A stretch of 32,000 nucleotides of DNA from Candidatus Scalindua sp. (GCA_031316235.1 JALDRA010000001.1:2100001-2132000), one strand, 5' to 3'; shown: positions 2,577 to 31,153, counted from the stretch's first letter. Notes: generated by a model not told the origin, from the letters alone. Numbers and translations: made by a program.

Positions 2577-3003
2577 CGGACGTTACTGATTCTCAACAGA
2601 AGAATATGAGATATTTTTAATATCGGTGAAAGGGTATTGTGTCAAACCAAAATAGGTGACCAAAATATATCCCAATTATTTGCAATATCATTGTCGGGGG
2701 AGCTATCGGGAATAAGTTTCCCTGAGCTTGCAGAAAGATATAAAATAGCAACTTATAAGACGATAACATCAAATGAAAGAAAAGGGAGAGAGCAGCATAA
2801 AGAAAAAAATAATATGCAAAGCTAATGCAGTCAAGGGGGGATTTGATCCTTTGTACAATCTCCTTTTTATGGGAAATTTTATAATGTGTATACGATGTTG
2901 TGGTATAAAAAGTGTACGATGTTATGAAACACACCAGCCAATCACAAATCAAGGTATGACCCCAAGTATGACCCAATAAATAGGTATGGTGTCCCCCGAA
3001 TAG
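2577..3003 (+). repeat. R1 interspersed noncoding repeat, copy A (core ~2590-2849, tail-A 2850-2966 with a ~24-nt internal duplication, DR25-like end 2978-3003)
   Basis: About 90% identical by eye to 13540-13902 and 30639-30899; partial copies at 7226-7300, 11521-11720, 18606-18742. Confidence 0.85.
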
Positions 3004-3170
3004 TCACAGGCCATTCGCCAGCCCCCGTCCCCGATGATTGACCCCATCTTGTCAAAGTTAAAGAACCGACCTCGATGATGCCCCGATGACGAGAGCCAAC
3101 GAACAAAGCCCGAAACGACCCATGGGCCAATCTGACCTGCAGATCGGACCTCGGGGTGTTGCGTGCAGTG

Positions 3171-5312
3171 CTACTGCTGTAAATCCCAAACGATTAGCTT
3201 CAGATTCCCGCTATTGGTTCGAACCGCGGAAACCAGCATGTCGTCGCCGGTGCGCGCCAGGTCGAGGGCGCTGATTCCACCAGCGAAAGCCTCACTGCGC
3301 AGCTGTATGGTGGCACCGTCGGGGCTGACCTCAAACAGGCTCATCTTTAATGCTTTGGTCGATGGATCCTGACAAGCCGTTACCAACGTCCCAACACCCA
3401 GGCGTTCGGAGTCGAGAAGCCCACATCCACCGGCACTGACCGCGCTGCCAAGACGACGTACTGTACCAACGTCGTTCACATCCCATGCGATTACTTTCTG
3501 GTCGCCTGATGTGGTGCGGACAGCAGACACCATCAGGTAGTCAAAATCTAGTGCGGTGGCGGTGAGACGACTTACGGACCCAGCGGAGTAGCTTCCTTGT
3601 CGCTGCACCTGCCAAGAACCATTTTCACGAACAACTTTCCAAGCGATCACTTTCAAATTGCCCACCGAATCCCGAACAGTGGTTGAAACGCCCCACGGAT
3701 TGGGAGTAACGTCCACCAGCGAAACCAGCCCTGCGGTGGCATCAGCGAGGCGATGAATGGAACCGTCGGCGTAGACACGCCAAGCAATCACTTTCAGAAC
3801 ACCAGTGCTGGTCCGCACTGCCGTAACAACATGCAGGCGATCCCAACGAGTTGCCGCAATGCTGCTGACTGCACCAGCGGTCGCATCGTGCAATCGCTGA
3901 ACCGAGCCGTTAGATGAGACCTTCCACGTGATCAGTTTCAGGTTGCCACTTCCATCACGAACCGCGGTGACAATGTTGCCGAGACCTGTGTGCAGAGCGG
4001 CAATCTGGGAAACCGGACCGGCCTGGGCGCTGCCTTGAAGACGTTGAACTGTGTTGCCGTCGGTACTGACACTCCAAGGTATGAGTTTCATCTGGTTGTT
4101 CGCAACGCTAACCGTAACCAGACGGCGGTGCCCAATACGGACAAGATGAACGTCATCGATCGATCCAGCCTCAGCGCTGCCTCGGCGCTGCAACGTCATA
4201 TTGGCAGAGCTCTGCGGCGAGATCAGATCATGACGGTTCATGTTCTCCAGGGCATCGCGCATGCGATCGATCTGTTGGGGAGAGAAGTGGTTGTCAAATC
4301 CGCATCCCTTGAAGTAACTCATCACGATGCCACGGTCTGGTTCCAATCGGTACGTCTTGCTGGAGGAGCCAAAGTCCACGGGAATATCGATAAAGCTATA
4401 GTTAGGAGTGCATTTGTCTCCATATTCCTCGACCCAGATGCTACCCATAGCATCGGCGGGGGTGTCGAGAACATACGCGCGATCACCATCTAGTGCGTCG
4501 AGTCCATCATTCTTCGCCATACCGTTGTCGACAGCCTTCTTGATTCTCGCCGCGGCGTCCTCCACGTTCAAAACTCCACCAACAAAAGGATGTACTTGAT
4601 GCAAGTAATGGCCAATCTCGTGAGCCAAATCTGGAGATCCAGGGTTGCCTTTCATCGAGACCCAACGACCGGTACCACTCGACGAACCACCGTTGCCAGC
4701 ACCGGTAACGGTCCAGTGGCCAAGCCCTTCGTCGTAGACCAACTTGTCCGGACTGGAGAAGTAGAGAACCAATTTGCCGCGATGGGTATTGGCAACCGCT
4801 CGTCTGAACGCCTTGTGCCAAACCGACGTGGTCGGTGGCTCAACATTAGGATCCGTGTAGTCTTCTACGTCAGCGAGAAGCGTAAAGTACTTGTTCAAGA
4901 TTGTCGCGTTCTTCTGCTCGAAGTCGGTCGCGGGGTCAAACTCAAACTCAATTCCAGCTTCGTAGAATATGTCGTTTATGGCCGAGATCTTCGACTGGAG
5001 TTTGGATGCTGTGTACGGTGAAGCATCCGAGCCGTCGCTGTTGGCTGTCGCGATAGCGTGCAGGCGAATCGTATAAACGGGTGTGCGCCTAAACGGGATT
5101 GGTTGCCACCGGGACGGAACTATTGGGCCATCGTTATCTTTGTATACCGTGGTTCCTCCCCCGGTTGTATTGCTTCCTATGACACCGTCCGTAGTTCCAT
5201 ACGAATAGTCATCTCTGGAAAACCCTGCTGCGTCTGCGTTGCCCAAAGTAGAAAATGCAACGGTTAATAAAATTACTGATACGCCAATTATTTTTTTTAG
5301 TTTGATTTTCAT
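3171..5312 (-). CDS. Secreted metzincin-like zinc metalloprotease fused to a C-terminal ~7-repeat beta-propeller-like domain
   Basis: SD GGGAGAGG 5 nt upstream of the ATG. Signal peptide MKIKLKKIIGVSVILLTVAFSTLGNADA. HEIGHYLHQVH (HExxHxxxxxH). Seven ~47-aa repeats of the form ..VTAVR..G.LK[LV]I[AT]W.V...G.V.RL.. with the last strand LKLIVWDLQQ at the C-terminus. Confidence 0.8.
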   Translation of the reverse strand: MKIKLKKIIGVSVILLTVAFSTLGNADAAGFSRDDYSYGTTDGVIGSNTTGGGTTVYKDNDGPIVPSRWQPIPFRRTPVYTIRLHAIATANSDGSDASPYTASKLQSKISAINDIFYEAGIEFEFDPATDFEQKNATILNKYFTLLADVEDYTDPNVEPPTTSVWHKAFRRAVANTHRGKLVLYFSSPDKLVYDEGLGHWTVTGAGNGGSSSGTGRWVSMKGNPGSPDLAHEIGHYLHQVHPFVGGVLNVEDAAARIKKAVDNGMAKNDGLDALDGDRAYVLDTPADAMGSIWVEEYGDKCTPNYSFIDIPVDFGSSSKTYRLEPDRGIVMSYFKGCGFDNHFSPQQIDRMRDALENMNRHDLISPQSSANMTLQRRGSAEAGSIDDVHLVRIGHRRLVTVSVANNQMKLIPWSVSTDGNTVQRLQGSAQAGPVSQIAALHTGLGNIVTAVRDGSGNLKLITWKVSSNGSVQRLHDATAGAVSSIAATRWDRLHVVTAVRTSTGVLKVIAWRVYADGSIHRLADATAGLVSLVDVTPNPWGVSTTVRDSVGNLKVIAWKVVRENGSWQVQRQGSYSAGSVSRLTATALDFDYLMVSAVRTTSGDQKVIAWDVNDVGTVRRLGSAVSAGGCGLLDSERLGVGTLVTACQDPSTKALKMSLFEVSPDGATIQLRSEAFAGGISALDLARTGDDMLVSAVRTNSGNLKLIVWDLQQ

Positions 5313-5546
5313 TTTTCCTCTCCCTTAGTAAAAACGATTAAAATAGTAGTAAAAGCTACTAGCATTTGATACTTGGTTTTATGATAGAGCGATTCACGCG
5401 CCAAACCATAATAACTATCTTTAGATATGTTCTTCTGTGCTGGCGTAACAATTGGTTGTACAAAGCATTATGATTGTAAAAAAAATAAAAATATAGTTTT
5501 GAAGACTGATTTATGGGGTGTGGAATAGTAGGTGAAATAGTGGTTC

Positions 5547-5729
5547 AAAACTGGGGTATTCCACACTCCAAAAGAAAACCAATTTGGTGAATCGGTTTGC
5601 GTAACGTGTGCATGATATCTAGTAAACCGGCTGCAACATTAAAAACTGTTTCCTTTGAAAGCTGTAAAATACAGGAGGTTTATTGAAACACTCCTGTTCA
5701 GCGGTGCTGAGTATTTTCATTCTTGCCAT
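5547..5729 (-). pseudogene. tnpA: Tn3-family transposase N-terminal remnant (frameshifted, truncated)
   Basis: SD ggag + ATG at 5729: MARMKILSTAEQECFNKPPVFYSFQRKQFLMLQPVY*. It continues in another frame as ..RKPIHQIGFLLECGIPQF*, resembling the DUF4158-type Tn3 TnpA N-terminus. Confidence 0.45.
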
Positions 5730-5794
5730 AGCTATTACTCCTTATTTTCCTTGCAAAAAGGCGTTACCTTTTATTGAATATATGAAATAGGTTT

Positions 5795-6000
5795 TTGCAA
5801 GGGAAACTTGAAGCTGCCAAGGTAGAAGGACGTACCGGCGGTCGGAAACCAATACTTCAGAATGATCAGCGCAAGGATGTGATTGAAAATGTTCTCTCTG
5901 GCAGGGAAATGGTGCGCAGAGGGCACGGCAATATAATGTCAGCAAGGCAACTATATCTCGTGTTATTGCCGCCCATAGGCAGGTGTTGTCTCGCGCTTGA
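5795..6000 (+). pseudogene. tnpR: Serine recombinase (resolvase/invertase) C-terminal HTH remnant, frameshifted, catalytic domain missing
   Basis: ..GKLEAAKVEGRTGGRKPILQNDQRKDVIENVLSG.. then, after a frame change near 5905-5912, ..GAQRARQYNVSKATISRVIAAHRQVLSRA*. Stops lie immediately upstream of 5795. Confidence 0.5.
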
Positions 6001-6305
6001 TCCTACACAACATTTGGTACCTTTATGGGATTAGACCCAACTACGTAGTGTGCTTATGGGTTATTATAGAAAGATAAATACTTTGAGTATTTCTGAAGAT
6101 CAGGAGGTGGGTAAAAATAACTTAACCCAAGTCGACAAATCGGAGCTAAAAAGTGCAAAAAATGGTAATATATCAGCCATTCGCTCTGCTTTTCCATACC
6201 TCCCTGCCGTGTAAATATTTTGCCAATCTCTCCCATTTAAGGAATAACAAAAACCTCGAAAAAAAAAGCTGGCGTCCGGTTTCGATTTATGGTATACAAT
6301 ACCAA

Positions 6306-7226
6306 ATGAGAAACAAATGGATTATAAGAGGTCGTACAATCAGCGAAGATGATATCTCCATCATCAACAATCTGATAAAAGAGTATTTCCATAAAGGACG
6401 CAAACACATTTCCCGCCAACTAGCACACCATTGGAACTGGTATCAACCCAATGGACAAACAAAGGACATGGCCTGCCGGTACATACTCCTCTCTTTGGAA
6501 CAAGTAGGAGTAATAAAATTACCCCCTCGTCTTAATTCGGCTAATAATGAGAAGAGAAAGATTGAAAAGATAGAACTGGATAAAAAGCCACTCACCGGAA
6601 CAGTTACAAACCATCCCTCTTTGAAGTTAAAACATCTCATCTCCCCGGAAGAACATAAGCTCTGGAACAGAATAATCCACAGCTATCACTACCAGGGATA
6701 CCAGATAATAGTTGGTAAATATCTCAAGTACATAGCATACATTGATGACAGACCAGTGGCCCTTGTGGGTTGGGGATCAGCTGCATGGTCTTTAGAGGCA
6801 CGTGATACGTGGATTGGGTGGAGTAAAGAGATGAAGGATAGGAATCTTTGTGGGATAGTGAACAATATTCGGTTTTTGATTTTGCCATGGGTCAAGATTA
6901 AATACCTGGCAAGTAGAATTCTGGGGTTAAATATAAGGCGAATACAAGGTGATTGGAAAAAGAGATATGGACATTCTATTTATTTATTGGAAACATTTGT
7001 AGAACAAGACAAGTTTCATGGGACATGCTACAAAGCGGCAAACTGGACATACCTGGGTCAAACAAAAGGGAACGCTAAACGAGGAAATACCCATACATAC
7101 CACGGGAAGATAAAAAAGGTATTCGTATATCCTCTGTGTAATGATTTTCGGGACAAACTCACCCGCCAGGATGACTTTGTCGTCTGCCCGTACCGGTCCG
7201 GACGGGCGCTAGTGGAGAAGGGGTGA
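6306..7226 (+). CDS. DUF4338 domain protein (DruA-like family)
   Basis: ..HSYHYQGYQIIVGKYLKYIAY.., ALVGWGSAAWSLEARDTWIGW, NNIRFLILPW, YLLETFVEQDKFHGTCYKAANWTYLGQTKG. Start chosen at MRNKW (6306) rather than the ORF-track 6153. Confidence 0.75.
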   Translation: MRNKWIIRGRTISEDDISIINNLIKEYFHKGRKHISRQLAHHWNWYQPNGQTKDMACRYILLSLEQVGVIKLPPRLNSANNEKRKIEKIELDKKPLTGTVTNHPSLKLKHLISPEEHKLWNRIIHSYHYQGYQIIVGKYLKYIAYIDDRPVALVGWGSAAWSLEARDTWIGWSKEMKDRNLCGIVNNIRFLILPWVKIKYLASRILGLNIRRIQGDWKKRYGHSIYLLETFVEQDKFHGTCYKAANWTYLGQTKGNAKRGNTHTYHGKIKKVFVYPLCNDFRDKLTRQDDFVVCPYRSGRALVEKG

Positions 7227-7553
7227 TGGAAAAGGGAGAGAGCAGCATAAAGAAAAAAACAATATGCAAGGCTAATGCAGTCAAGGGGAGAATTGACCCC
7301 AAACTCACTATAATAATCATTACACACCAGATGTTTTCCAGCAGTTGTTAACAGTCCCTTCGCAGTTTACACTCAAGAATTTAATCAGAGCTCCTTGATG
7401 AAATAATTATGATGCAAATTGATATCTATTAGATGGATTGTAATATCAAGGTCGTGTGTTAGCTCTATAATCAGCTGCCGGGATATACCGAATGGCTAAT
7501 ATATTACGTTCTTTGTTTCTAGCATGTAGCCATGTATGGACTTGCCCCCTTTA
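7226..7553 (+). repeat. R1 3' segment (7226-7300) joined to R4 module (7300-7553), copy B
   Basis: 7300-7553 differs from 30900-31153 at only 2 positions by eye. It begins exactly at the DUF4338 stop codon. Confidence 0.85.
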
Positions 7554-7643: not shown

Positions 7644-7702
7644 ACGAGTCTTTTGGCGGAGCTGACCTCCACTTTGCTTTTGTTCACCCTATCCCTCAAA
7701 TT

Positions 7703-7727
7703 AAATGAGTATGGTGTCCCCAGATTA
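7703..7727 (+). repeat. DR25 direct repeat (aaatgagtatggtgtccccagatta), left copy flanking the Gp49/XRE cassette
   Basis: Matches 8567-8591 (1 mismatch in the 25-nt core; 27 of 29 when the flanks are included) and, more loosely, 2978-3003. Confidence 0.8.
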
Positions 7728-7794
7728 CTGCTAATACATAATCAAAGCGATCTCTAACCGGTCGTCGTAAAGCACAGTACTTTGTTTGCTGTTT

Positions 7795-8070
7795 TTAAGC
7801 AACTTCAAGCTTCAGGTGTTTACCTAATGCATTTGCAAATTTTTCAAGCGTTGACAGTTTTATATCTTCAGCATGATTTTCAATCCGGGAAATAGCAGAC
7901 TTTTTTGTGTGAAGCTTCTTAGCGAGTTCTTCCTGTGTTAAACCAGCTTCCTCACGGGCTGTTTTAAGCATTACACCAATTTTGAATTGTTCGTAACCGG
8001 ATTCAAAATTTTTTGCAAATTCAGGATCTCGTACCTTACGCTTTTTAATGTAATCTTGCAAATCGCTCAT
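7795..8070 (-). CDS. XRE-family HTH antitoxin
   Basis: ..[52 protein letters not shown]. 4-nt overlap with the upstream toxin gene. Confidence 0.85.
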
Positions 8071-8409
8071 TTTGTTTTTCTCCTTTTAAAATAATCACTT
8101 TTACGTTCCTCTGCTACCTTAATCGCACTTTTAGGAGTCTTTTGAGATTTTTTCTGGAATCCATAAGCCAAAACCACCAAAGTCGAACCATCATAGAAGC
8201 CAAGAAACCGAAATATATTTGATCCGAATATGATACGTACCTCCCAGATATCATCACTATTTTTCAATTTTTTGAAATAATGAGACGGAACTATGTCGAG
8301 TTCCTCTACTAAACTCAATACCCATGCAACTTTTTGAAGATAGCGTGTTAAGAAAATCCTTTACAGGGTTTTTCCCTGACGCTGTTTTGTAAAATATAAT
8401 TTCTCGCAC
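8067..8409 (-). pseudogene. Gp49-like (HigB/RelE-fold, phage-derived) toxin, disrupted by a frameshift in an A5/T5 run
   Basis: GTG at 8409 gives MREIIFYKTASGKNPVKDFLNTLSSK. After the T5 run at 8331-8335 the family sequence continues in another frame (..KVAWVLSLVEELDIVPSHYFKKL..IWEVRIIFGSNIFRFLGFY..VVLAYGFQKKSQKTP). Confidence 0.7.
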
Positions 8410-8440: not shown

Positions 8441-8566
8441 TCAAGAGAGAAAGTTTGTGTTAGATTGAGGATAGTGATTGATAGTCTTAATTTTGTTCAT
8501 AAGAAGTGATAATACGAGAGATGATTCCTCACATAAAATAAGGATGACAAAATCCGAAAACATTTT

Positions 8567-8591
8567 AAATAAGTATGGTGTCCCCAGATTA
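8567..8591 (+). repeat. DR25 direct repeat, right copy (aaataagtatggtgtccccagatta)
   Basis: See 7703-7727. Confidence 0.8.
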
Positions 8592-8717
8592 ATGTAGAAG
8601 TTTCTCATGGGCCTTATCATGGGCCCCGTCATGGGCTTTCTCTAATTTTTTTAACGCAATATCTTTCCACTCATGAGCGCTTAGCAGTTTTAAGAGTTCC
8701 TTTTCATTCATACTCAT
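8589..8717 (-). pseudogene. N-terminal remnant of an AlbA_2/AAA-4-type regulator, running into a short tandem repeat
   Basis: MSMNEKELLKLLSAHEWKDI.. resembles the N-terminus of the 468-aa protein at 16730-18136 (MTEKELLIKLEEF..). The frame then reads through three tandem CATGGGCC units (8607-8637). Confidence 0.3.
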
Positions 8718-9941: not shown

Positions 9942-10366
9942 TCATTGATCTTCTGAAAAAATTCCTCATAATACTGCTTCAGTCGTTGCGCATCACCAGT
10001 GACTTGCTCCCAATTCAGCTTTGTGTAATGTCTGTAAAAGTGGATTAATTGTTCACAAAAGGCCTTGATAGCGTTAATCCTGGTTTCTCCGGTAGTAAAA
10101 ATACCAAGATTTTCATTTTCGGCGAAAAAGAGGCTTTCTCCTTTTCGAACCTTAACAGAAACCGGTTTTAAAGAACGGATCACTACCATCGGCGAAGTAA
10201 ATCGCCAAAGTGGTGTATATGCAGCTGCGTGTTGCCGTACACTTTTATCAACATCTAATTCCCGGGCGGTCAGATCTCCTTCCAGAAATCTGGTATAACT
10301 TGAAGGAAAAGAGCTCTGTCGTTCTGCTTTTATTGCATAGCTTTCATCTAATTCAGTTTTTATCAT
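9938..10366 (-). CDS. HicB-like antitoxin-domain protein (no recognisable DNA-binding tail)
   Basis: ..VSVKVRKGESLFFAENENLGIFTTGETRINAIKAFCEQLIHFY resembles the HicB N-terminal fold signature. ATGA overlaps at both ends. Confidence 0.4.
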   Translation of the reverse strand: MIKTELDESYAIKAERQSSFPSSYTRFLEGDLTARELDVDKSVRQHAAAYTPLWRFTSPMVVIRSLKPVSVKVRKGESLFFAENENLGIFTTGETRINAIKAFCEQLIHFYRHYTKLNWEQVTGDAQRLKQYYEEFFQKINE

Positions 10367-11079
10367 ATAGTTTCGCCTTTTAGATATTGACGATACTCAT
10401 CAGTGATATAGTTCTCGAATAAGTTTCTGGCCTGATTATGTGCCTCATTTACTTTATCTCTTATGTTTGAAAATGTGAGTTCTTTAACATTTGCAAAATC
10501 AAAATCCAGTAGTATGGCCTCCTGCTGCTCATCCGAACGTGCTACAGATTCAATCTTCGTGGTGATGGTTCCGTTCGTAACTCTTGAAATAAACGTAAAG
10601 CTGAAATTCTCATATTTTTTCGATACTTCACCGGGTAAATTGAGGTCAAAATTAATAAACTGCTGAAGCGGGACTATGCTATCCTCACGTGTGAATGGAA
10701 TAGCGTTAATGTACCGCCATCCGAGGCGATTTACGAGTTTCAGCGTAAACGTTTCACCAAAAATCTTTGTGAGACGGATAAATTCTTTGATGAATGGTTT
10801 GTGACCTGAATATTCTTTTTCGTAATAGGAAAACCGGTTAATTGCCAGCATAATACCAGAATTTTGATCTTGATTCTCAAATCGATACGTAGGAAGTGCT
10901 CCGGCCAAAAGACCGTCCTTTTGCGGAACGAGAATATATGGATAATTATCCCTGATTTTGTCATAAAATTCATCTGTACGACATATTATGGACAATTCCT
11001 CTGGAAACCGGATCTCGCAAACCACCTCCACCAAGGGTGAATTGGGGTATACTTCTTTTATATCGTATTGTTTTGGCAT
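10363..11079 (-). CDS. TIGR04255-family uncharacterised protein
   Basis: N-terminus ..YPNSPLVEVVCEIRFPE.., then ..RLGWRYINAIPF.. and ..AILLDFDF.. as in TIGR04255 members. First gene of a three-gene translationally coupled set. Confidence 0.65.
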   Translation of the reverse strand: MPKQYDIKEVYPNSPLVEVVCEIRFPEELSIICRTDEFYDKIRDNYPYILVPQKDGLLAGALPTYRFENQDQNSGIMLAINRFSYYEKEYSGHKPFIKEFIRLTKIFGETFTLKLVNRLGWRYINAIPFTREDSIVPLQQFINFDLNLPGEVSKKYENFSFTFISRVTNGTITTKIESVARSDEQQEAILLDFDFANVKELTFSNIRDKVNEAHNQARNLFENYITDEYRQYLKGETI

Positions 11080-11520: not shown

Positions 11521-11720
11521 AATAGGTGACCAAAATATACCCCAATTATTTGCAATATCATTGTCGGGGGAGCTATCGGGAATAAGTTTCCCTGAGCTTG
11601 CAGAAAGATATAAAATAGCAACTTATAAGACGATAACATCAATGAAAGAAAATGGAGAGAGCAGCATAAAGAAAAAAACAATATGCAAGGCTAATGCAGT
11701 CAAGGGGAGATTTGATCCCA
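11521..11720 (+). repeat. R1 repeat, copy C (5'-truncated core, no tail)
   Basis: aataggtgaccaaaatat...cagtcaaggggagatttgatccca. Carries a 1-nt indel relative to copies A/D (aatgaaagaaaatg versus aaatgaaagaaaag). Confidence 0.85.
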
Positions 11721-13423: not shown

Positions 13424-13902
13424 GGTATACTCGCTCAATTTGATCTCGGATTTTATCCGAAAACAATCATGAGATGAGTATATCATATGATAAATCGAGG
13501 AACAAACCCTGATAGAATCTTTTGCAAAGAGGAATGTTATTCTCAACAGAAGAATATGAGATATTTTTAATATCGGTGAAAGTGTATTGTGTCAAACCAG
13601 AATAGGTGACCAAAATATACCCCAATTATTTGCAATATCATTGTCGGGGGAGCTATCGGGATTAAGTTTCCCTGAGCTTGCAGAAAGATATAAAATAGCA
13701 ACTTATAAGACGATAACATCAAATGAAAGAAAAGGTAGGGAGTAGCATAAAGAAAAAAACAATATGCAAAGCTAATGCAGTCAAGGGGAAATTTGACCCC
13801 AAAACCTCACTTTGTACAATCTCCTTTTTATGGGAAATTATATAATGTGTATACGATGTTATGAAACACACAAGCTAATCACTAATCAAGGTTTGACCCC
13901 AA
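13424..13902 (+). repeat. Composite repeat copy D: R3 (13424-13482, stem-loop TCGGATTTTATCCGA 13446-13460), linker, R1 core (13540-13800), tail-A (13801-13902)
   Basis: The linker + core match 30583-30899. Tail-A matches 2850-2966 and 18646-18742. Confidence 0.85.
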
Positions 13903-14836: not shown

Positions 14837-15778
14837 TTATAACTTGATCGTTGCTTTTATTTGATTAATCAGGTCTTCTTTTAATTCTTCCCATTTGTCC
14901 ATTTCCCAAGTAATATGATTAAATTGCCTTATATCAAAATGTAATTCTTTAAGTTGGTCTTTTTTTATTAATCGAATAACCTCTTTTGACTCGCCCATGG
15001 CGAAGCCAGCTTCAAAATATACACCATTATTCTGATCGGTAAAATCAGCAATAATAAATTTCGATTGTTTTATGTCAGAAATTATTTTATGAGAAATGTC
15101 ATTATTGTGTCTCTCATCAGAAACCAAATTTGCTTCAAAACCACAAGATGCACAAGCTGCCTTTATGGTGTTGACCAGATCATCTTGAAAATCTGTTTTG
15201 AAATCACATGCAATAAATACCTTTTTAGATTGTATATTGTTTCTTAATGCAGATTCAATTTCTGAAAACCCTTCAACCGTTAACATAACACATTCATTAG
15301 AATCATCACCAATTTTACCATGGTCTCTCTTTTGTAAAATTTTTGTTTCTTGTAAATATGTTAAGAGCTTGATTAGTTCGCTATAATTTTTTAGGTAGAA
15401 TAGTGTATATAAATTTCTATACTCTACTACTAATGATTTTCCTATAGAAGATGTTTTTTGATAGAGGTAGCTCTTTATTTTAGAAATTTTTTCACTGAGA
15501 GGAATTGTTTGACAATACTCTAAAATTTGTGGCAATTCTTTACCTATAAACTCACTTGTTAATGTGATGGATTGGTTGTTTCTTAAAAATCCAGAAAACA
15601 ATATTTTCTTTTCATCAGTTGTTAATATTTTTAAAAATTCTTTATCATCTAATGCACGCCGTTCGATAGTGAACTTACCACATAGGCAATTACTATATGT
15701 AGTTTCAAGCGTATCAGGATTTTTATATATTTGCGCTTCTATTCCACAAAATGGGCATACTTTATTTTCGGTATTCAT
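14837..15778 (-). CDS. Zn-ribbon + helical/wHTH-like middle + C-terminal nucleoside 2-deoxyribosyltransferase-like / TIR-like domain protein
   Basis: N-terminal CPFCG...CLCG. C-terminal KKVFIACDF..(~45 aa)..SKFIIADFTDQNNGVYFEAGFAMGESKEVIRL (Rossmannoid NDT/TIR-like pattern with conserved Glu). Confidence 0.55.
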   Translation of the reverse strand: MNTENKVCPFCGIEAQIYKNPDTLETTYSNCLCGKFTIERRALDDKEFLKILTTDEKKILFSGFLRNNQSITLTSEFIGKELPQILEYCQTIPLSEKISKIKSYLYQKTSSIGKSLVVEYRNLYTLFYLKNYSELIKLLTYLQETKILQKRDHGKIGDDSNECVMLTVEGFSEIESALRNNIQSKKVFIACDFKTDFQDDLVNTIKAACASCGFEANLVSDERHNNDISHKIISDIKQSKFIIADFTDQNNGVYFEAGFAMGESKEVIRLIKKDQLKELHFDIRQFNHITWEMDKWEELKEDLINQIKATIKL

Positions 15779-18572: not shown

Positions 18573-18742
18573 AATCACTGATCAAGGTTTGACGTCATTT
18601 TTCGTGCAAGGCTAATGCAGTCAAGAGGAGATTTGATCCCAATACCTCACTTTGTACAATCTCCTTTTTATGGGAAATTATATAATGTGTATACGATGTT
18701 ATGGAACACACCAACTAATCACAAATCAAGGTTTGACCCCAA
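18573..18742 (+). repeat. R1 copy E (3' core fragment 18606-18645 + tail-A), bracketed by direct repeats aatcac..atcaaggtttgac (18573-18594 and 18716-18737)
   Basis: gcaaggctaatgcagtcaagaggagatttgatccc + ..cctcactttgtacaatctcctttttatgggaaattatataatgtgtatacgatgtt.. Confidence 0.8.
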
Positions 18743-18794
18743 GTGTCTCCAAGAACCAATTGTTTTGTGTTGGTTTATATTTCCCCTGAAGTCT

Positions 18795-21700
18795 TCAGGT
18801 AGGCTGAATGGATTCATTTAATTTGTTTGTCTTTAAAATTATTTTAAACATTTTCTTAATGTATGTGGCTTCGTCTTCCTGAAACAATACATTATGCTTC
18901 TCGACATCTTCCTTATTAAGCTTTTTATCCCACCATTTTATTTGATAATGCTCTGTAACAGAGATAATGAATGAATTCAAAATAACATCTTTGTCACCAA
19001 TCTGGCCTTCAAGAGTTTTAATCTCTTTATGAAAACGCATTTTAGGATCATCGAGGCCTTTTGCATGACGAATACCATGAGGATCGATAAATGTAATGAA
19101 TTGTGTTCCGCCATAAACTACCCACATGATAAAGTCCGGATAAAAATTATGAGCCTGAAAGAAACCGACTCCTCTGCCTCTACCCAGATTCCGGAGTAAA
19201 TACATCTCCTTATCTTTAAAATAATCAATATTGTCCTCATAGTGTTTCTTCAAGTCGGCAACAAATTGATTCTCTCCCTTATTCAAGGCAACCGGTATCA
19301 CCTTTATTTCGCTATCTTTTATGTAAATCATGGGTTTATACAGGTGTCGGTCGAAAGAGAATGAGTGTAAAGATCCGAACTCAAAATTACTGAAATCCTG
19401 GTTTTCTATCTTTTGTTTCAGCTCTGTAAGTTTGGTAATAATATCCTCCCGAGACTTTTCAACCGTAAAGGTATACTCATCAAAAAGATTACCCTTCTTT
19501 TCCTGAGCTGACAAAGCTGTTTCAACTTCATGAATATACTTATATTCAATCTTATCTTTCTCATAATCTAATTTTTTCACATTGTAATACTGATCACAAT
19601 ATTTCTTCAGTAAGACAACGGCTATATCCTGCCATAATTGAACCTGTTCGAATGATTTAAGTTCAAGTTCTTCCTCTGGAATATATAGGATATACCAGTC
19701 AGTTCTCGCCAACAAGGCAGGAAGAATATTCTTATCAATATTCAAATTATAATAACAGCGTTCATTCTTGTATTTCTGTAATTCAAAATAGATCTCTTCA
19801 ACATCCATAAAAGCAAGATGTACACTCTTTAATTCTCCTTCGTTAAATGTTGCCACTGCAGTGGAACGGGCCATCCTGCTTTGCAGGGCTTCTATCTTCG
19901 GGTACCAGTCAACGAGAACCGGATGTTCAAGCATGTAGTCATCAGGCTCTCCCAGCGTTGGCCGTTCACCCTGTTTCTTGAAATTAACTCCCTCTTTAAG
20001 CTGAGGATATTTAAGTTTGGTTTTCCCCAGATTAGAAATAGCCGGTATCGCAATCTCTTCGTATTCATCTGCTCCTTTAACCCCTTCATCCTCCAGATAT
20101 TCTCTGAATTGACGCATATAATCCGCCTTGACGCCAAACACATGAAGCGTCTCAACTATGCCGATGTTCTTGGGAATGTTAACACTCTTCAAATATTTGC
20201 TTCGTTTCAGGCTCATATCGTATCCCTTCAAGCGCACACCTCTTCCAAACAACTGAATAATTTCAGACCCTTCCGTTTTACCCACATTCATAAGACCCAT
20301 TGTGCTTACGCGCCAGCTGTTCCAGCCTTCCGTGAATTTCTTTGATCCTATCAGGATTTTTACCGGAGAACTCTTTTCAGAGAGCCGATGGAAAAGCGAA
20401 TCAGAAAAATCTTTGCTTGAAGCAATGAGACCATTCTGTTCACAAAGGTTTATCAGATCACGGTCATCTCCGACATTGATAACGCCGAAATGCTCATTGT
20501 CTCCAAGTCTCAGGCCTATCTCTCCCTGCGCTCCTTTCAGATTGTCTAAATGCATATGTGCCTCAACAGTAGTACAATTAAAGACCTGTTTCCTGATATC
20601 AGTGTATAAGTCATTCGCTTCCATTCTCTTGGAGATTAAATATATGAATTTTCCGGCAAAAAGGTCATTTCCTCTGGTGTCATTCAGCTGAGATGTCCCA
20701 CTGAGTAATCTCTCAATATATTCAATTGATTCCTGCGTATTCCTTAAAAAACTGTCCAGAAACAGAAGGATGTCTACCACATCGGAAACCTTGCTGCCCT
20801 GTTCAGTGCGAACTGCGTTTACCCTGCTGCCGACAAAAATCCAGAGCGGCTCTTCCAGTAAAAACGGAGAAAATGCCCTTTCGTTTTCATGAAACAATAA
20901 AAGCTGCTGGTAGAAACTCAAGAGACATGCAGTTAAGTAAAGCTGTTTCTGCTCTTCATGACGATTTTCTGCAAGATTTAATATTGAATACTCTTTTCCG
21001 TATCCGTCCCGGTAGAAATATTTATACGAATAGTCAAACAGGATGCACTTTGCATACTGCTGAAGCATCTCTTTTTTACCGGATGCCTTCATGGCCTGAC
21101 CGAATGTCGCCGAATACTCAAAGGAAAAGCCATCCTCACACAGGCGATTGCGTTTATCCATCCACTCTATCCCGCCGGCACCTCGATGGCCTTCATCAAC
21201 AAGCACCAGATTTTTCCCCTCAAAACAATCCACGCTGACTGTCTTCTCTTTTGACTCTTCCTTTAATTTATGGATATCAATAATCTCAATTTCGTTACTA
21301 ATAAACAGCCCCAAAGCGTCTTTTTTGAAAAGATCAGCCGTGAAACCTGATAACAGAAATTCTTTTCAATGCTGTTCTGAAAGCCCCTCGTTGGGAGTTA
21401 AAAGGATTGTCCTGTTTACCTTTTTCTTTAAACCATATCTCTTTTGATAATGCTGATACTGAAGTATGTTTATGTGCATGATCAATGTTTTACCTGATCC
21501 CGTCGCCTGCCAGAAGGCTATCTTGTTGAGCTCTTCAATTGCGTATGGCATAACCTGTTCACCTGGTTCTCTGTCTGTATTAAACTGCGTGACAAAATCA
21601 TTCAGCTCCGTGAGCAGGTTTTGCGGATTTCGAAAGTATCTGTCCAGATAAATCTCGCAGAAAAGGAGCGCCATATACTGAAAATACTTCCAGCGAAATC

Positions 21701-21989
21701 CTTCACGTTTCGAGCAAATACGCAGGGTGTGGCTAACGATATTCTGATCAAACTGTAGAAGGAGATCGTCAGGCAGGGCTTTACGTTCAAAGAGTTGGTT
21801 GGTCAGGTGTGTGTGAAAGTGGGAGACATTATTCTCATCGACACCCTCCAGATGCTGTGCTTTCATGCCATCGCACAAATTATCCAGTGACTCTACCTCA
21901 AAGAGAAAAAGGATATATTGGAAAAGCACGAGGGACTTTCCAAACTTGAAATCTGCCTGTCTCCGTCTGTTTTGTTGTCTTTTAGCCAT
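18795..21989 (-). pseudogene. Type III Res-like SF2 helicase with a C-terminal nuclease-like motif; one reading frame interrupted by a single in-frame TGA (21366-21368)
   Basis: ORFs 21366..21989 and 18795..21314 are in the same frame. Read-through gives ..LTPNEGLSEQH*KEFLLSGFTADLFKKDALGLFISNE.. Motifs: ATGSGKT, VLVDEGHRG, FTEGWNSWR, QLFGRGVRLKG, YPDFIMW..FIDPHG. Confidence 0.8.
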
Positions 21990-22160: not shown

Positions 22161-23255
22161 TTATTCCACAATTTCGAGTAACTTATTAAAAATATATATG
22201 CTGGCTTTTCTTCCGCCTCCTTTACGCAAAACCGAAATTACGCCTTCTTTTTCAAGCAATTTCATAAAACGCATCGCACTTGCCTTAGGAATGCCCGAGC
22301 TATGGATAAAGTCACTGGCGCTAAAGACTGGCCTGGCAAAAAGTGTGTCGATGATATTAATAACATATTGAGACCTTGTAATAGTTTGCATACGCTCTTT
22401 CTTCTTTTCATATAATTCCAATATTTCTCTCGCCTTTTTACTGTTTGTTTTTGCCTGTTCAACGATAGAGCGTAAAAAGAACTCTATCCACTCTTCCCAT
22501 TTCTTATTTTGAGTAATAGCTTTTAGTCTCTCATAATATTCATCTCTATTGGCCTCAAGGTATTCACTTATATAAAACATCGGAGTACTGAGCACCCTTT
22601 TTTCGTATAGTAATAATGGAATCAATATCCTTCCAACCCTTCCGTTTCCATCTACAAAGGGGTGAATTATTTCAAATTGAGCGTGAACAACGGCAAGCTG
22701 GACTAGCGTATCCTTTTCATCAAAATGTATATACTTCTCAAAATTAGATAAGTACTCCATTAAGCGCATTGGCTCTGGTGGAACGTAATAAGCTTGTTCC
22801 ACAGGCGTTCCCGGTTTACCAATCCAGTTTTGAACACTCCTAAATCTACCCCTTCCCTTATCTTTACCCCTAACACTATCTAAAAGTTGGCCGTGTATCT
22901 CTTTTATCAAATTTAATGTGATTGGCTTTTTCATAAGCCAGTCAAGCGCCATATCAATAGCCTTGCGATAATTTATTATTTCCTGGATATCCTTTTCTTT
23001 TTCAGTCTGTATCACAGCTTGAGCAGAAGCTTCGAATTCAAGAACCTCTACAAGGCTAGCCTGTGTCCCTTCAATGCGTGAAGAAAGAACTGCCTCATTA
23101 GTAGTAAGGGGTGATAAGAGCACACGTGGATTGATAATTCCCTGTAAAATACCATCATAACGAGCTAACTCAGCATTCGCCTTTCCTATAAGAGTTATAA
23201 ATCTTACCCAATCAATGTCTTGTAGTGGTAATGTATCCGGAATAAATGGTTTCAT
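22161..23255 (-). CDS. fic: Fic-domain protein (AMPylase-type) with N-terminal inhibitory motif and C-terminal wHTH
   Basis: HPFVDGNGRVGR (HxFx[DE]GNGRxxR). SSRIEGT matches [ST]xxxE[GN]. C-terminal ..GIPKASAMRFMKLLEKEGVISVLRKG. Confidence 0.9.
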   Translation of the reverse strand: MKPFIPDTLPLQDIDWVRFITLIGKANAELARYDGILQGIINPRVLLSPLTTNEAVLSSRIEGTQASLVEVLEFEASAQAVIQTEKEKDIQEIINYRKAIDMALDWLMKKPITLNLIKEIHGQLLDSVRGKDKGRGRFRSVQNWIGKPGTPVEQAYYVPPEPMRLMEYLSNFEKYIHFDEKDTLVQLAVVHAQFEIIHPFVDGNGRVGRILIPLLLYEKRVLSTPMFYISEYLEANRDEYYERLKAITQNKKWEEWIEFFLRSIVEQAKTNSKKAREILELYEKKKERMQTITRSQYVINIIDTLFARPVFSASDFIHSSGIPKASAMRFMKLLEKEGVISVLRKGGGRKASIYIFNKLLEIVE

Positions 23256-26322: not shown

Positions 26323-29192
26323 TTAAACAACCTTCCATCGTATCATAAATAATGTTTCGGTATCAGTTTTCTGCTCCATCTTTTTCTTGAGCGTGTCAAT
26401 CAGTATATCACGTTTTTCTTCTATTTCATCCTCTACATCAAAGATTCGCTGTCGCTGCCTGCGTTGAATTTTTTCTGTTTCCCTGATCTTTACCTCAACG
26501 TCATGCTTCTCCTGCAGGGATGTCGATTGGCGCAACTCTCGGTTCAAAGCACGGAGTCTGTTCTTGGTATCCTTTAATTCCTTTTCGGCAGATGAGATCA
26601 GGTCATCTGTCCAGCGAAACAGGCGATCGCATTCATCATGATAATAGGAATTGTTCCGTTCCATTGTCTTATCGATCGTAGCGTCAATATGACATTGAGC
26701 GTCATCTCGCAATCTCTTCTGTATTTCATCCGGCAAACTAACATCTCTTTGAGTAGTGGCGCCACAATCAAACAATTTCTCGCAAATTTCAGGATGAATT
26801 ACAGCGCCTGTATCATCGAAAGCATTAAAAAGTAAATATTCGTCCTGCCCGAAACTCTTAATCATGAGTTTAGATAGTATCAAATACCCTGATTTTCGCT
26901 TGAGTGACTCAACGACAGATATCTTAACAGGATGGCTGCTGATATCAAAGACTAGTTCTGCATAAGGGGTATTGCATCTTCTCGATTCTGACAATACATA
27001 CTCCCCAAGAGGATGAGACATGCGATATAAATATATACTTTCAACATTTTCTTTTCTTTTTGATATTAAATGATAGTTGCCGGTGCGGATTGTATTGCCA
27101 GGTGGTTCCTTAAGATAAAACGATAACTCTTCACAATGGAATTCTGCTCTCTTCTCCAAGACATGTTCCGTAATCTTCCAGAATCTCAGCTCCATCTTAT
27201 CAAGTAAATCCTGTGTTTGGTCCAAATGCAGTTTAAGACGTTCGTGTACATCCTCATCAAAATGTTCAAGGAGAATCTGTTTGCTTTCCTTAATCTTTGA
27301 TTGAATCTGTTCGTCCATTTTCTGTTGTAATTCTGAAAAGGCGCTCTGAATCTCCTGTGGTTTGCGGCATTGCCGGTAGATTCGTAACACCTCCTTCTCA
27401 AAATCGACACCTGATTCGAGCGAACCAAGTACTTCATCAGATGCACCAAAGACACCACTGAACAGTTTAAATTTATATACCAAAAGATCATATACCTGTC
27501 GGTCAACGTCATTGCGTTCATTTAAGAAATTAATCACGACAACATCATATTTTTGTCCGTAGCGGTGACATCTTCCTATTCGCTGTTCTATACGTTGCGG
27601 GTTCCATGGCAGATCATAATTGATAACCAGTGAACAGAATTGCAGATTTATTCCCTCTGCAGCAGCTTCAGTTGCGATAAGAATATCCGATGTATCTCTA
27701 AAATGCTCCAGGATGGCAATACGTTTATCCGAGCTCTTCGATCCACTGATACGACCGGTGTCTCTGTTGTGCTCAAGCCAGTTTTCATATATTTTTTTAG
27801 ACTCCTGGTCTGTATTTGTTCCGTTAAACGTAACAACTCTTCCTGCATAGCCGTTGGCATCCAGATAGTCCTTTAAGTATTGTTGTGTCCGACGTGATTC
27901 GGTAAATACAACAGCTTTTTTCTTTGCCCCCATTTTCTCCGCTTCCGCAAAACCGCGTTCAATGCCGTCTCTGAGCTTTTTTGTTTTTGAGTCGACTTTG
28001 ATAACCTTTGCGTCTTCAATAAATTTTTCCAGCAATTCAATTTCGTGATCAATCTTTTCCTTATCAATTTTACCTCCATCCTGATCTTCTGTTTTATCTT
28101 CCTCCTCTTTCATGGCTATTCCCAGTTCTTCCATCTCCTCATCATCCAGGGATTCATCATCAACCAACTGATCAACGATGTTTTCTTCTACCGGTTGTTC
28201 ATCACTTAACTTCTCTAAACGTCTTTTTATTGTTTCCAATGTTGCTATGAGAGCATAGGATGATGATGCCAGTATTTTTCTCATCACCAAGGTAATAAGA
28301 GATTTCTGGCTTGTTGGTATGGCGTAGGTATCAGGCTGTTGGAGAAATGCTGTTATGCCCTGATATAATTTTATCTCTCGATCGGTCTGTGCGAAGTGAA
28401 TGGTTATTGCTTTGCGATTAGTATAGGGGATATATTGTAACACCTGCTGGCGCAGTGTGCGTTTACAAAAACCTTTTAAACGAGTCTTAAGGCTTTCTAA
28501 GTCGGCATCATTAACATATAATTGACGAAAACTTCTGCTATCTCCAAAGAGATAATCGTCTATAATTGTGGATAAACCAAAAGCTCCATTAACGAATTCT
28601 GTAGTGGGGTTGCTGTCAAAAGTATCTTCTTTGTGTCTTCCAGAACCCACTTAATCGATTGTCCGAGTACATTTGATCTGCGGTATGCGTTTCTCAGCTT
28701 ATGAGCTTCATCAATAATTGCTAAGTCCCAGGGGATTAATTTTGTTGTTTCTTTCTTACTATGTATGAACTGATATGAACAGATAACAACTTTATCCTGG
28801 GTAAATGGGTTATCATAACCATCATTATTGAACTGATTATACGTCCTAGACTCAAGAATCACGGAAGGTATATTAAATTTTTCTTCAAGCTCTATGCTCC
28901 ATTGCTTTCTTATCGATGCCGGACAAACAACGAGTAATTTTCGCTTACGTTCTGCCCAATACTGGCAAAGCGCTATAGATGCTTCGATTGTTTTACCCAA
29001 ACCAACCTCATCAGCCAGGACAACACCTTTTGACAAAGGAGACTTTAAGGCGAAAAGAGCTGCTTCTATTTGATGGGGATTCAAGTCAACCGCAGCATCA
29101 AAAAGGGAACGAGATATCTTCTCAATCCCATCTTCAGTGGATGATTTCAGCAAGTCGTGTGCATAATATTTAGCATGATAATCGGTAATCAT
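26323..29192 (-). pseudogene. SNF2-family helicase with a long C-terminal extension; split by a 1-nt frameshift near 28579-28582
   Basis: The N-terminal ORF ends ..LTATPLQNSLMELLVYPQL*. The second ORF contains ..AFGLSTIIDDYLFGD.. One extra T in the cttttgg run would give ..SLMELFGLSTIIDD.. Motifs: DEVGLGKT, IIDEAHKLRN, LTATPLQNS, QRIGRCHRYGQ. Confidence 0.8.
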
Positions 29193-29492: not shown

Positions 29493-29505
29493 GGGTCAAG
29501 TCTGC
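29493..29505. repeat. RAYT-flanking inverted repeat, left arm GGGTCAAGTCTGC (overlaps the RAYT stop codon)
   Basis: Perfect reverse complement of 30514-30526. Confidence 0.8.
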
Positions 29506-30513: not shown

Positions 30514-30526
30514 GCAGACTTGACCC
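30514..30526. repeat. RAYT-flanking inverted repeat, right arm GCAGACTTGACCC
   Basis: See 29493-29505. Part of the hairpin GTCAA-tagcagac-TTGAC (30507-30524). Confidence 0.8.
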
Positions 30527-30544: not shown

Positions 30545-31153
30545 CCGGATTTTATCCGAAAACAATCATGAGATGAGTATATCATGTGATGAATCGAGGA
30601 ACAAACCCTGATAGAATCTTTTGCAAAGAGGAAGGTTATTCTCAACAGAAGAATATGAGATATTTTTAATATCGGTGAAAGTGTATTGTGTCAAACCAAA
30701 AGAGGTAACCAAAATATACCCCAATTATTTGCAATATCATTGTCTGGGGAGCTATCGGGATTAAGTTTCCCTGGGCTTGCAGAAAGAAATAAAATAGCAA
30801 CTTATAAGACTGTAACATCAAATGAAAGAAAAGGTAGAGAGTAGCATAAAGAAAAAAACAATATGCAAGGCTTATGCAGTCAAGAGGAGGATTGACCCCA
30901 AACTCACTATAATAATCATTACACACCAGATGTTTTCCAGCAGTTGTTAACAGTCCCTTCGCAGTTTACACTCAAGAATTTAATCAGAGCTCCTTGATGA
31001 AATAATTATGATGCAAATTGATATCTATTAGATGGATTGTAATATCAAGGTCGTGTGTTAGCTCTATAATCAGCTGCCGGGATATACCGAATGGCTAATA
31101 TATTACGTTCTTTGTTTTTAGCATGTAGCCATGTATGGACTTGACCCCTTTAC
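30545..31153 (+). repeat. Composite repeat copy F: R3 (30545-30582), linker, R1 core (30639-30899), R4 (30900-31153); bracketed by the 16-bp direct repeat gacttgacccctttac (30517-30532 and 31138-31153)
   Basis: Matches copy D (R3-linker-core) and copy B (core 3' end + R4). Confidence 0.85.

Follow-up and report, generated by a model that had tools for sequence, protein, structure and literature searches.

We analysed a stretch of 32,000 nucleotides from Candidatus Scalindua sp. (GCA_031316235.1 JALDRA010000001.1:2100001-2132000), referred to below as the window, in which an initial annotation had described a G+C-rich island carrying one gene. This island very probably represents a single foreign gene, gained by a low-G+C host through horizontal transfer, whose site of insertion is rich in repeats, remains of transposons and defence genes. 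The gene encodes a protein of 713 amino acids (aa), predicted to be secreted, that combines a pappalysin-like metzincin domain with a C-terminal β-propeller resembling the PLL lectins. The transfer event is a fairly ordinary, textbook single-gene islet, and both folds, as well as the protease-plus-propeller design, are already familiar. What is new is an unnamed family, a zinc motif without the canonical Gly, and a distinct, promiscuous propeller module. The protein family is more useful than the transfer event, being well conserved, modelled with structural confidence and without a Pfam or NCBIfam name. Two leads are worth following: the propeller family, which has no name, and the 5′ end of the gene, which may be mosaic.

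A compositional island carrying one gene

Two-state maximum-likelihood change points, G+C content and tetranucleotide distance together delimited a compositional island at 2988-5245, to which no strand is assigned. Its edges were placed at 2988 (2-lnL, log-likelihood, support 2953-3009) and 5245 (5238-5267). The G+C content of the island was 55.1%, against 37.3% in the remainder of the 32-kb window, and a 500-nt profile gave 52.6-57.2% across 3001-5000 against 29-46% in all other parts. Among 253 segments of equal length outside the island, G+C averaged 37.2% (standard deviation 2.5) and reached at most 42.2%. The blocks counted by hand in the initial annotation had been counted correctly (55.0% at 3541-3600, 56.7% at 4141-4200 and 35.0% at 5401-5460), and the span that it had called G+C-rich, 3004-5240, was computed at 55.0%.

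The island carries a single long open reading frame (ORF) on the minus strand, running from 5312 to 3171 (stop codon at 3171-3173). The ORF is intact, as judged from its translation and from 157 homologues, and an identical gene had been assembled independently in three Logan runs. Its G+C content was 53.9% and its G+C content at third codon positions (GC3) 57.1%, compared with 37.4±3.2% and 34.5±6.4%, respectively, for the 22 other ORFs of the window (z = 5.1 for G+C and 3.5 for GC3). In tetranucleotide usage, the island gene stood at an L1 distance of 0.66 from the background of the window, compared with 0.15-0.28 elsewhere. The island was therefore an outlier on all three measures, and its composition deviates far beyond chance, relative to the 32-kb window, which served as the baseline in place of the full genome.

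Relatives of the protein

A family search of 5.8 billion proteins returned 157 relatives, nearly all of them unnamed metagenomic proteins, about 60 of which share the two-domain architecture. The closest, P0002, was 67% identical to the window protein and is encoded on a 61% G+C contig; the genes of P0003 and P0004 lie on contigs of 69-71% G+C. When GTDB was scanned by motif seeding, with each species represented by one genome, 54 loci were obtained, with full-length relatives in Kofleriaceae (43% identity), Haliangiales (40%), Ignavibacteria (37%), Blastocatellales, Acidiferrales and Polyangiaceae. None of these 54 loci, which come from species representatives reached by motif seeding, and none of the 157 proteins belonged to Scalindua or Brocadiales. 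Relatives were not found on viral contigs, and on plasmids there was one distant match to the propeller (Bradyrhizobium).

In a neighbour-joining tree, built without support values, the window protein paired with P0002 inside a signal-peptide-bearing clade that also holds Myxococcota sequences (Kofleriaceae and Haliangiales). The phylogeny that the initial annotation had proposed for finding the donor thus grouped the protein with P0002 and Myxococcota and did not identify a donor lineage, the best relative being 67% identical. The gene stands alone, because the contexts of P0003 and P0004 are unlike each other and unlike the window. Membership in the neighbouring group of defence genes was considered and dropped, as PADLOC gave no defence-system match for the protein.

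Three further features of the relatives were seen. P0002 (166-2478 on its contig, L004) is apparently annotated too short, as an upstream in-frame Met gives MNANSSSHIARLLGSALLVALAFTMLLGDTPALA, a proper signal peptide. The subfamily P0024-P0053 (for example L007, L009 and L010; Ignavibacteria, Blastocatellales and others) has no signal peptide and starts at the catalytic domain (M..YKIRVQ..). Many of its members carry a C-terminal extension of 40-60 aa that ends in a conserved GGEC[DG].

Evidence for horizontal origin

We used the relatives as a family-specific control. Across 12 homologous loci, gene G+C tracked flank G+C (slope 0.70, r = 0.97), and this regression predicted 43.9±2.7% for a gene in a 37.3% G+C host; the observed 53.9% departed significantly from that value (t = 3.7, p = 0.004). 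On the same regression, the G+C and the GC3 of the gene both corresponded to a genome of ~50-52% G+C. Homologues matched their own flanks in G+C, and the same-clade relatives lie on contigs of 60-71% G+C with GC3 of 0.80-0.94. Scalindua genomes have ~37-41% G+C, consistent with the window.

The high G+C content extends beyond the coding sequence. The 183 nt that separate the stop codon from the island's left edge (2988-3170, minus strand) are non-coding, had a G+C content of 58.5% and appear to have come in with the gene; protein composition cannot explain the value of this flank. This bears on the reading of the gene as native, with a composition set by amino-acid content (repeats rich in Gly, Ala, Val and Arg) or by expression-linked codon choice. 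The mature protein is indeed rich in Ala, Gly, Val and Ser relative to the other window proteins, and the Ignavibacteria homologue lies 5-7 points above its own flanks in G+C. However, any such family effect is already contained in the regression, which predicts only 44%; GC3 and the non-coding flank are high as well, and no relative was found in the host lineage. We consider a native origin very unlikely.

An assembly chimera, or a contaminating contig joined to the host genome, was also considered, and two of the three Logan contigs do end near the edges of the island. Against this, a contig of 3961 bp from a separate Logan assembly (L001) matched window positions 2780-6740 at 100% identity across both junctions. 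The flanking multi-copy repeats account for the contig breaks, and the ORF crosses the right junction in frame. An artefact of assembly is most improbable in view of these data.

Horizontal acquisition, as proposed in the initial annotation, is thus favoured by the family control, the G+C content of the 3′ flank, the high-G+C relatives, the lack of a Scalindua or Brocadiales relative and the mobile and defence-related surroundings. Close homologues inherited vertically in relatives of the same G+C content, which would have spoken for the contrary, were not found. The annotation had further described the event as recent and the donor as high in G+C. The donor is better placed at ~50-52% G+C or above, and "recent" is undated but plausible, since the non-coding flank has not ameliorated. 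If the gene is unameliorated, its donor had ~50-55% G+C; the flank and the agreement of G+C and GC3 on the regression favour such a recent transfer.

An older transfer from a donor of very high G+C content (61-71%, GC3 0.8-0.9, for example a member of Myxococcota), now roughly half ameliorated, would fit the same-clade relatives, all of which are on 60-71% G+C contigs with GC3 of 0.80-0.94, and the intermediate GC3 of the window gene (0.57). However, the non-coding 3′ flank, which is expected to ameliorate fastest, still has 58.5% G+C, a value at or above GC3. In addition, G+C and GC3 agree on a donor of ~50-52%, which suggests equilibrium with a genome of moderate G+C content. An older transfer therefore seems unlikely to us, though far from negligible.

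Several points weigh against the reading of the island as a horizontally acquired gene for a metzincin with a PLL-like propeller. Only 32 kb of the host genome stand behind the compositional comparison, and these 32 kb are themselves rich in mobile elements and defence genes. With a best relative at only 67% identity, no donor can be named, and the tree carries no support values. The absence from other Scalindua genomes rests on the motif-seeded scan of species representatives, and the support from host proteins for the assignment to Scalindua comes from one protein cluster. A simple transfer of a whole gene also leaves unexplained why the promoter and the first ~22 codons do not look foreign. 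On the protein side, the catalytic domain lies below the Pfam M43 threshold, with query template-modelling scores (TM-scores) to solved metzincins of only 0.4-0.5. The propeller has no detectable sequence similarity to PLL, and WD40 proteins give similar E-values, which makes a lectin function an analogy and not a demonstrated homology.

As in other single-gene islets of horizontal transfer, the island shows atypical G+C, GC3 and oligonucleotide composition, sharp boundaries, nearby repeats, transposase remnants and defence genes, and a patchy taxonomic distribution. It differs from them in having no integrase, tRNA or flanking direct repeat, and in that one boundary lies inside a coding sequence. 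At the island we found no integrase, att site or target duplication that would show the mechanism of insertion.

Layout of the protein

The initial annotation had assigned a signal peptide, the motif HEIGHYLHQVH and seven repeats to one protein, and we found all three in the ORF. Codons 1-28 (5229-5312, minus strand, as are all parts of the gene given below) encode MKIKLKKIIGVSVILLTVAFSTLGNADA, a Sec-type signal peptide as judged by inspection. It comprises a Lys-rich n-region (MKIKLKK), a hydrophobic core of 13 residues (IIGVSVILLTVAF) and STLGNADA, followed by AG. Inspection of the sequence also showed small residues at positions -3 and -1 of the predicted cleavage site (A-D-A, an A-x-A pattern), and cleavage would probably occur after Ala28. 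These features predict that the protein is exported by the Sec pathway.

Residues 29-66 (5115-5228) form a linker or short pro-segment rich in Gly, Thr and Asp, which contains no Cys, has no homology within the family and was modelled at a predicted local distance difference test score (pLDDT) below 50. Homology to the family begins at residue 67 in the protein comparison with P0002, and at about codon 75 in the DNA comparison with L004. The catalytic domain occupies residues 67-372 (4197-5114) and the propeller residues 373-713 (3174-4196).

A possible mosaic 5′ end

The right change point (5245, support 5238-5267) does not coincide with the start of the gene but falls 67 nt within its coding sequence, near codon 23. 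The segment 5246-5312 had a G+C content of 23.9% and the 250 nt upstream of the gene 32.7%, and the signal-peptide codons as a whole were host-like (G+C 32%, GC3 29%). A Shine-Dalgarno-like sequence, GGGAGAGG, can be read 4 nt 5′ of the ATG (5317-5324, minus strand) in host-like A+T-rich DNA and is a putative ribosome-binding site. GC3 along the gene was 0.20 in codons 1-20, then 0.40 and 0.50, and 0.6-0.8 past codon 70. For codons 1-28 it was 0.29, compared with 0.58 for the rest (binomial probability 0.0014, or 0.03 when a dip of 0.1 at the 5′ end is allowed for). By comparison, six homologues residing in their native genomes had a GC3 over codons 1-30 that was at most 0.15 below that of the rest. 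The signal peptide uses Lys and Ile in host fashion, whereas that of the closest relative, P0002 (MNANSSSHIARLLGSALLVALAFTMLLGDTPALA), is rich in Ala, Leu and Arg. These observations suggest that the promoter, the ribosome-binding site and most of the signal peptide are host-like. An island that starts inside the ORF had not been among the observations of the initial annotation.

One explanation is that only the part from about codon 23 onward, together with the 3′ flank, is foreign, and that in-frame recombination joined it to a promoter, ribosome-binding site and start codon of the host and to the larger part of a host signal peptide. The incoming protease would thereby have gained an export signal that works in its new host. 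Such a mosaic gene would refine the reading of a horizontally acquired gene rather than exclude it. The position of the change point within the ORF, the low G+C of 5246-5312, the drop in GC3 over codons 1-28, which is larger than in the six native homologues, and the host-like Lys/Ile usage all fit a mosaic, as does the lack of homology of residues 1-66 to any family member. However, only ~22-28 codons are concerned, and part of the drop could stem from selection that favours 5′ ends rich in A+T and weak in structure, and n-regions rich in Lys. GC3 climbs gradually (0.2, 0.4, 0.5, 0.6) and shows no step, and the searches did not find a host gene sharing this 5′ end. We therefore put the mosaic forward tentatively, as a possibility of some weight that we do not favour.

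Searches for a source of the 5′ end gave little. When 5200-5760 was compared with the window by BLASTN, a 25-nt repeat was the only match, residues 1-76 had no match in a protein search, and a back-translated signal-peptide pattern had no match in the metagenome contigs of the Joint Genome Institute (JGI). The boundary inside the ORF nevertheless provides a small, testable lead on how transferred secreted proteins gain host-compatible 5′ ends. If the mosaic is true, the gene would be a concrete example of an incoming secreted protein fitted to the export machinery of its new host.

The metzincin catalytic domain

The initial annotation had labelled the protein a metzincin, and the zinc spacing, the Met-turn and the fold matches all agree with that label. 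We examined conservation in an alignment of 46 full-length family members. The zinc site HEIGHYLHQVH spans residues 231-241 (4590-4622) and satisfies the spacing H-E-x-x-H-x-x-x-x-x-H; H231, E232 and H241 were invariant, and H235 was kept in 45 of the 46 members. In the metzincin motif, HEXXHXXGXXH/D, the eighth position is the canonical Gly (PMC6949598). The corresponding residue 238 is His in the window protein, and across the alignment this position held Gln in 26 members, His in 18, and Ser and Gly in one each. The lack of the canonical Gly has a precedent within the pappalysin family, because mirolysin, a bacterial pappalysin and an accepted metzincin, carries Asp231 in its place (PMC6949598).

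Downstream of the zinc helix, Met331 (4320-4322) stands in a Met-turn, VMSYF, and was Met in 45 of the 46 members. It is flanked by C301 and C337, both invariant (46/46), which likely form a disulfide around Met331, by analogy with mirolysin, in which the disulfide Cys262-Cys291 surrounds Met284 (PMC6949598). The cluster LDGD...DTPAD was likewise invariant in the 46-member alignment (D275, D277, D283, T284 and D287), and its Asp residues D275, D277, D283 and D287 are a candidate calcium site. From these residues, a catalytic mechanism can be proposed in which H231, H235 and H241 would hold the zinc ion, E232 would serve as the general base and Met331 would form the Met-turn. The protein would then act as a zinc endopeptidase.

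Sequence profiles placed the domain only weakly. The Pfam family PF05572 (Peptidase_M43) matched residues 226-251 alone and below threshold, scoring 13.7 bits (E = 0.059) where the cut-off is 23. The whole protein had no match in NCBIfam, and a family profile searched against all sequences in the PDB gave chance-level matches only. Structure was more informative: an AlphaFold model of residues 60-372, built with 52 aligned sequences, had a pLDDT of 91.3, and its significant Foldseek matches in the PDB were all metzincins, namely PAPP-A (E 2.6e-6), PAPP-A2, ulilysin, ADAM33, ADAM8 and snake-venom metalloproteinases. The TM-scores of these matches were moderate (0.4-0.5 by query, 0.5-0.6 by target). 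Because of the metzincin structural matches and the M43-like motif HEIGHxLxxxHxF, we regard the modelled domain as a divergent pappalysin-like metzincin.

The domain shares several features with the pappalysins (MEROPS M43; ulilysin, mirolysin, PAPP-A). These are the extended three-His zinc motif at metzincin spacing, followed by P/T-F (HEIGHYLHQVHPF); the Met-turn VMSYF with a Cys shortly after it; and an Asp-rich segment past the zinc helix, where pappalysins bind calcium. Pappalysins are also secreted, as is predicted for the window protein, they provide its best structural matches in the PDB, and mirolysin likewise lacks the canonical Gly. There are also differences. The window protein is under the PF05572 threshold, matches no PDB entry by sequence profile and reaches a query TM-score of 0.4-0.5; 44 of the 46 members of its family have Gln or His at the Gly position; the family has one invariant Cys pair and not two disulfides; and the window protein carries a C-terminal propeller. 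The pappalysins of unicellular organisms have, at the N-terminus, a brief pro-segment with a cysteine switch (PMC6949598). The window protein has no such pro-segment, because residues 29-66 contain no Cys.

The propeller domain

Residues 373-713 contain seven repeats of the form ..VTAVR..G.LK.I.W.V..G...R.G.., in which the motif [LMQ]K[LVM][ISL]x[WF] recurs at residues 408, 458, 506, 553, 605, 655 and 704. The initial annotation had described seven repeats of ~47 aa; the number holds, and the length is slightly greater, at 47-52 aa. Its statement that the final strand lies at the extreme C-terminus also stands, the protein ending in ...LKLIVWDLQQ* (GNLKLIVWDLQQ*). In propellers, a strand from the N-terminus of the domain usually completes the last blade to close the ring. 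The phase of the repeats suggests that a strand at about residues 372-381 (MTLQRRGSAE) would play this role for the seventh blade.

An AlphaFold model of residues 365-713 (87 aligned sequences) had a pLDDT of 96.7 and a predicted TM-score (pTM) of 0.93 and showed a seven-bladed β-propeller. In Foldseek, the top full-length TM-scores, 0.70-0.76, were those of the seven-bladed Photorhabdus lectins PLL2, PLL4, PLL5, PLL3, PLL and PHL. The WD40 proteins RACK1 and Ciao1 had E-values like those of the PLL lectins and lower TM-scores (0.56-0.68). The Foldseek check proposed in the initial annotation thus returned metzincins for one domain and PLL/PHL lectins for the other, and its "lectin-like" suggestion stands by likeness of fold. 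Its remark that the repeat belongs to no named family also stands, as neither domain reaches a Pfam or NCBIfam threshold.

By sequence, the resemblance could not be recovered. Identity to the PLL lectins in the structural alignments was 16-17%. Neither a whole-protein profile nor a single-repeat profile of 67 blades found a PLL chain in the PDB at E ≤ 10, and Pfam searches with the propeller alone and with a four-blade concatenate had no meaningful match. The modelled propeller is therefore PLL-like by fold, and membership in the PLL family is not established. The likeness consists of seven four-stranded blades, repeats of ~47-52 aa, a total of ~340 aa and the TM-scores of 0.70-0.76 over the full length; the "W-motif" repeats of PLL are ~50 aa each. 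A difference is that the PLLs are free-standing lectins, with fucose or O-methyl sugars as ligands, whereas the propeller of the window protein is the C-terminal domain of a protease. A looser analogy is offered by the matrix metalloproteinases (MMPs) with a hemopexin domain, in which a metzincin domain likewise precedes a closed β-propeller at the C-terminus, through which substrates or ligands are recognised. It is an analogy only: the propeller of hemopexin is four-bladed and has no sequence relationship to the seven-bladed one, and the catalytic subfamily of the MMPs is a different one, M10.

The propeller occurs well beyond the two-domain family. With the propeller as sole query, an exhaustive phmmer search of 1.84 billion cluster representatives returned 843 at E ≤ 1e-3, 536 of them at E ≤ 1e-10. 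Many matches were free-standing proteins of ~350-420 aa. The recognisable partner domains were those of secreted hydrolases: M23, astacin (M12A), matrixin (M10) with PG_binding_1, reprolysin-like (M12B-like), bona fide M43, and subtilase S8. The Bradyrhizobium plasmid gene mentioned above, a distant match, is annotated as an "M12 family metallopeptidase" and also carries the propeller. Conversely, P0079 (metagenomic) and P0104 (NCBI) combine the window-type catalytic domain with a different C-terminal propeller, which has a match to DUF346 and a weak one to the fungal fucose-specific lectins. An assignment of the window propeller itself to DUF346 was rejected, as the DUF346-bearing proteins share only the catalytic domain with the query.

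The simplest view is that the propeller is a targeting or ligand-binding module, because it is swapped among extracellular peptidases and against a lectin-type propeller. By analogy with the PLL lectins, it may be a multivalent glycan-binding module. It would then direct the protease to a ligand of repetitive structure, or anchor it there; the most likely ligands are glycans, carried by cell envelopes or by glycoproteins of the matrix.

The main rival to glycan binding is a protein-binding, hemopexin-like role. More broadly, the propeller might not be a lectin at all, being instead a substrate-recognition domain of the hemopexin or WD40 type or a scaffold without a ligand of its own. The Foldseek E-values of RACK1 and Ciao1 in the PLL range and the absence of sequence similarity to PLL are in line with this. 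The sugar-binding sites of PLL sit between blades and rely on Trp stacking (PMC6943638), whereas the propeller family has one conserved Trp per blade. On the other hand, the highest full-length TM-scores (0.70-0.76) all belong to PLL/PHL and the repeat length agrees with theirs. The propeller is, moreover, confined to extracellular hydrolases and is exchanged with a propeller of the DUF346 or fucose-lectin type on the same catalytic domain. We consider a non-lectin role rather unlikely.

Knowledge of the ligand would annotate several hundred proteins; the propeller recurs on M23, M12A, M12B-like, M10, M43 and S8 peptidases. For the host, the gene adds a predicted extracellular protease to an anammox-type genome, which, speculatively, could serve in peptide scavenging or in remodelling of the biofilm matrix. 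The combined proposition is doubtful when taken as a whole: that a foreign protease body was joined to a host promoter, ribosome-binding site and signal peptide, and that the unnamed propeller family provides exchangeable targeting modules, probably for glycans, to six or more unrelated families of peptidases, among them a metzincin lineage with Gln or His in place of the canonical Gly.

The left edge and the host repeats

On the minus strand, the region 2960-3175, which covers the non-coding 3′ flank, gave a long hairpin with imperfect pairing when folded as RNA (-87.3 kcal/mol, z = -3.5), and none of 200 shuffled sequences was as stable. No canonical terminator was found in this region, and the hairpin might be a structured RNA element derived from the donor. 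The 3′ flank showed no similarity to that of L004, the closest homologue.

The initial annotation had placed repeat-like motifs at the left edge (2978-3055). A 30-nt host repeat, TTAAATRAGTATGGTGTCCCCAGATTA, was indeed found there at 2976-3005 on the plus strand, with further copies at 7701-7730 and 8565-8594. It contains the exact 13-mer GTATGGTGTCCCC, which occurs again at 7709 and 8573 (~0.4 occurrences expected by chance). The two further copies of the 30-nt repeat bracket a Gp49/helix-turn-helix (HTH) toxin-antitoxin pair at 7795-8318.

Adjoining the island is a multi-copy, non-coding host repeat of ~370 nt (2600-2967, plus strand), which ends at ~2967. Copies that are 74-97% identical lie at 13550-13902, 30649-30893, 11521-11718, 18605-18744 and 7229-7299. 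The repeat usually ends in ...CAAGGT-TTGACCCC. The 8-mer TTGACCCC, the second motif of the initial annotation, is over-represented in the window (10 occurrences against 0.63 expected), nearly always on the plus strand, and belongs to the host repeats. Of its occurrences inside the island, the one at 3038 lies within the G+C-rich segment and may be due to chance, so that this part of the earlier description is less secure, and the one at 4932 encodes the conserved peptide FDP.

The surrounding region

The region around the island is variable and rich in mobile elements, a usual landing place for foreign genes. To the right of the island, A+T-rich DNA is followed by a frameshifted remnant on the minus strand (5731→5540), just upstream of the protease gene and of host-like G+C content. 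Its translations (MARMKILSTAEQECFNKPPVF... and, in the other frame, LLDIMHTLRKPIHQIGFLLECG and ..LRKPIHQIGFLLECG) resemble the N-terminus of a Tn3-family transposase (DUF4158), of which it may be a relic. On the far left, the window starts inside a group II intron, with an ORF for a reverse transcriptase/maturase (RVT_1 and GIIM profile matches, 12-1124) and intron domains V-VI (RF00029, 1157-1310).

A solitary DruA-like gene (PF14236, formerly DUF4338; 6153-7226, plus strand) lies between two copies of host repeats, and no other Druantia components were found near it. The protein encoded at 10363-11079, of the TIGR04255 family, falls into a cluster at ≥90% identity with proteins from metagenome-assembled genomes (MAGs) of Candidatus Scalindua. 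Other window genes include a HigBA toxin-antitoxin pair and a PD-(D/E)XK protein. An ORF of 313 aa at 14837-15778 (minus strand) has the lowest G+C content in the window (29%) and, in its C-terminal part, a weak match to a TIR effector (PADLOC E 1.5e-7). This ORF may be a further defence gene with an origin of its own.

Further to the right lies a cluster of the type III restriction-modification (R-M) and DISARM-like kind, into which a Fic gene (22161-23255) is inserted. Two genes of the cluster, res for the type III restriction enzyme (18795-21314 and 21366-21989) and a gene for a DrmD-like SNF2 helicase (26323-28650 and 28560-29192), are each split into two ORFs that correspond to consecutive stretches of a single PADLOC model. 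These splits likely reflect frameshifts or pseudogenes, or possibly phase-variable switches.

Near the right end of the window, a gene on the minus strand (29496-30476) encodes an IS200-like Y1 transposase domain fused to the C-terminal HTH of DnaA. It is flanked at 30520 by sequence containing TTGACCCC, and a second member of its 90% cluster lies on the same contig. This transposase is a candidate mobiliser of the repeats in the window. The ~370-nt repeat could be a miniature inverted-repeat transposable element (MITE) or an element of the repetitive extragenic palindromic (REP) type, possibly tied to it.

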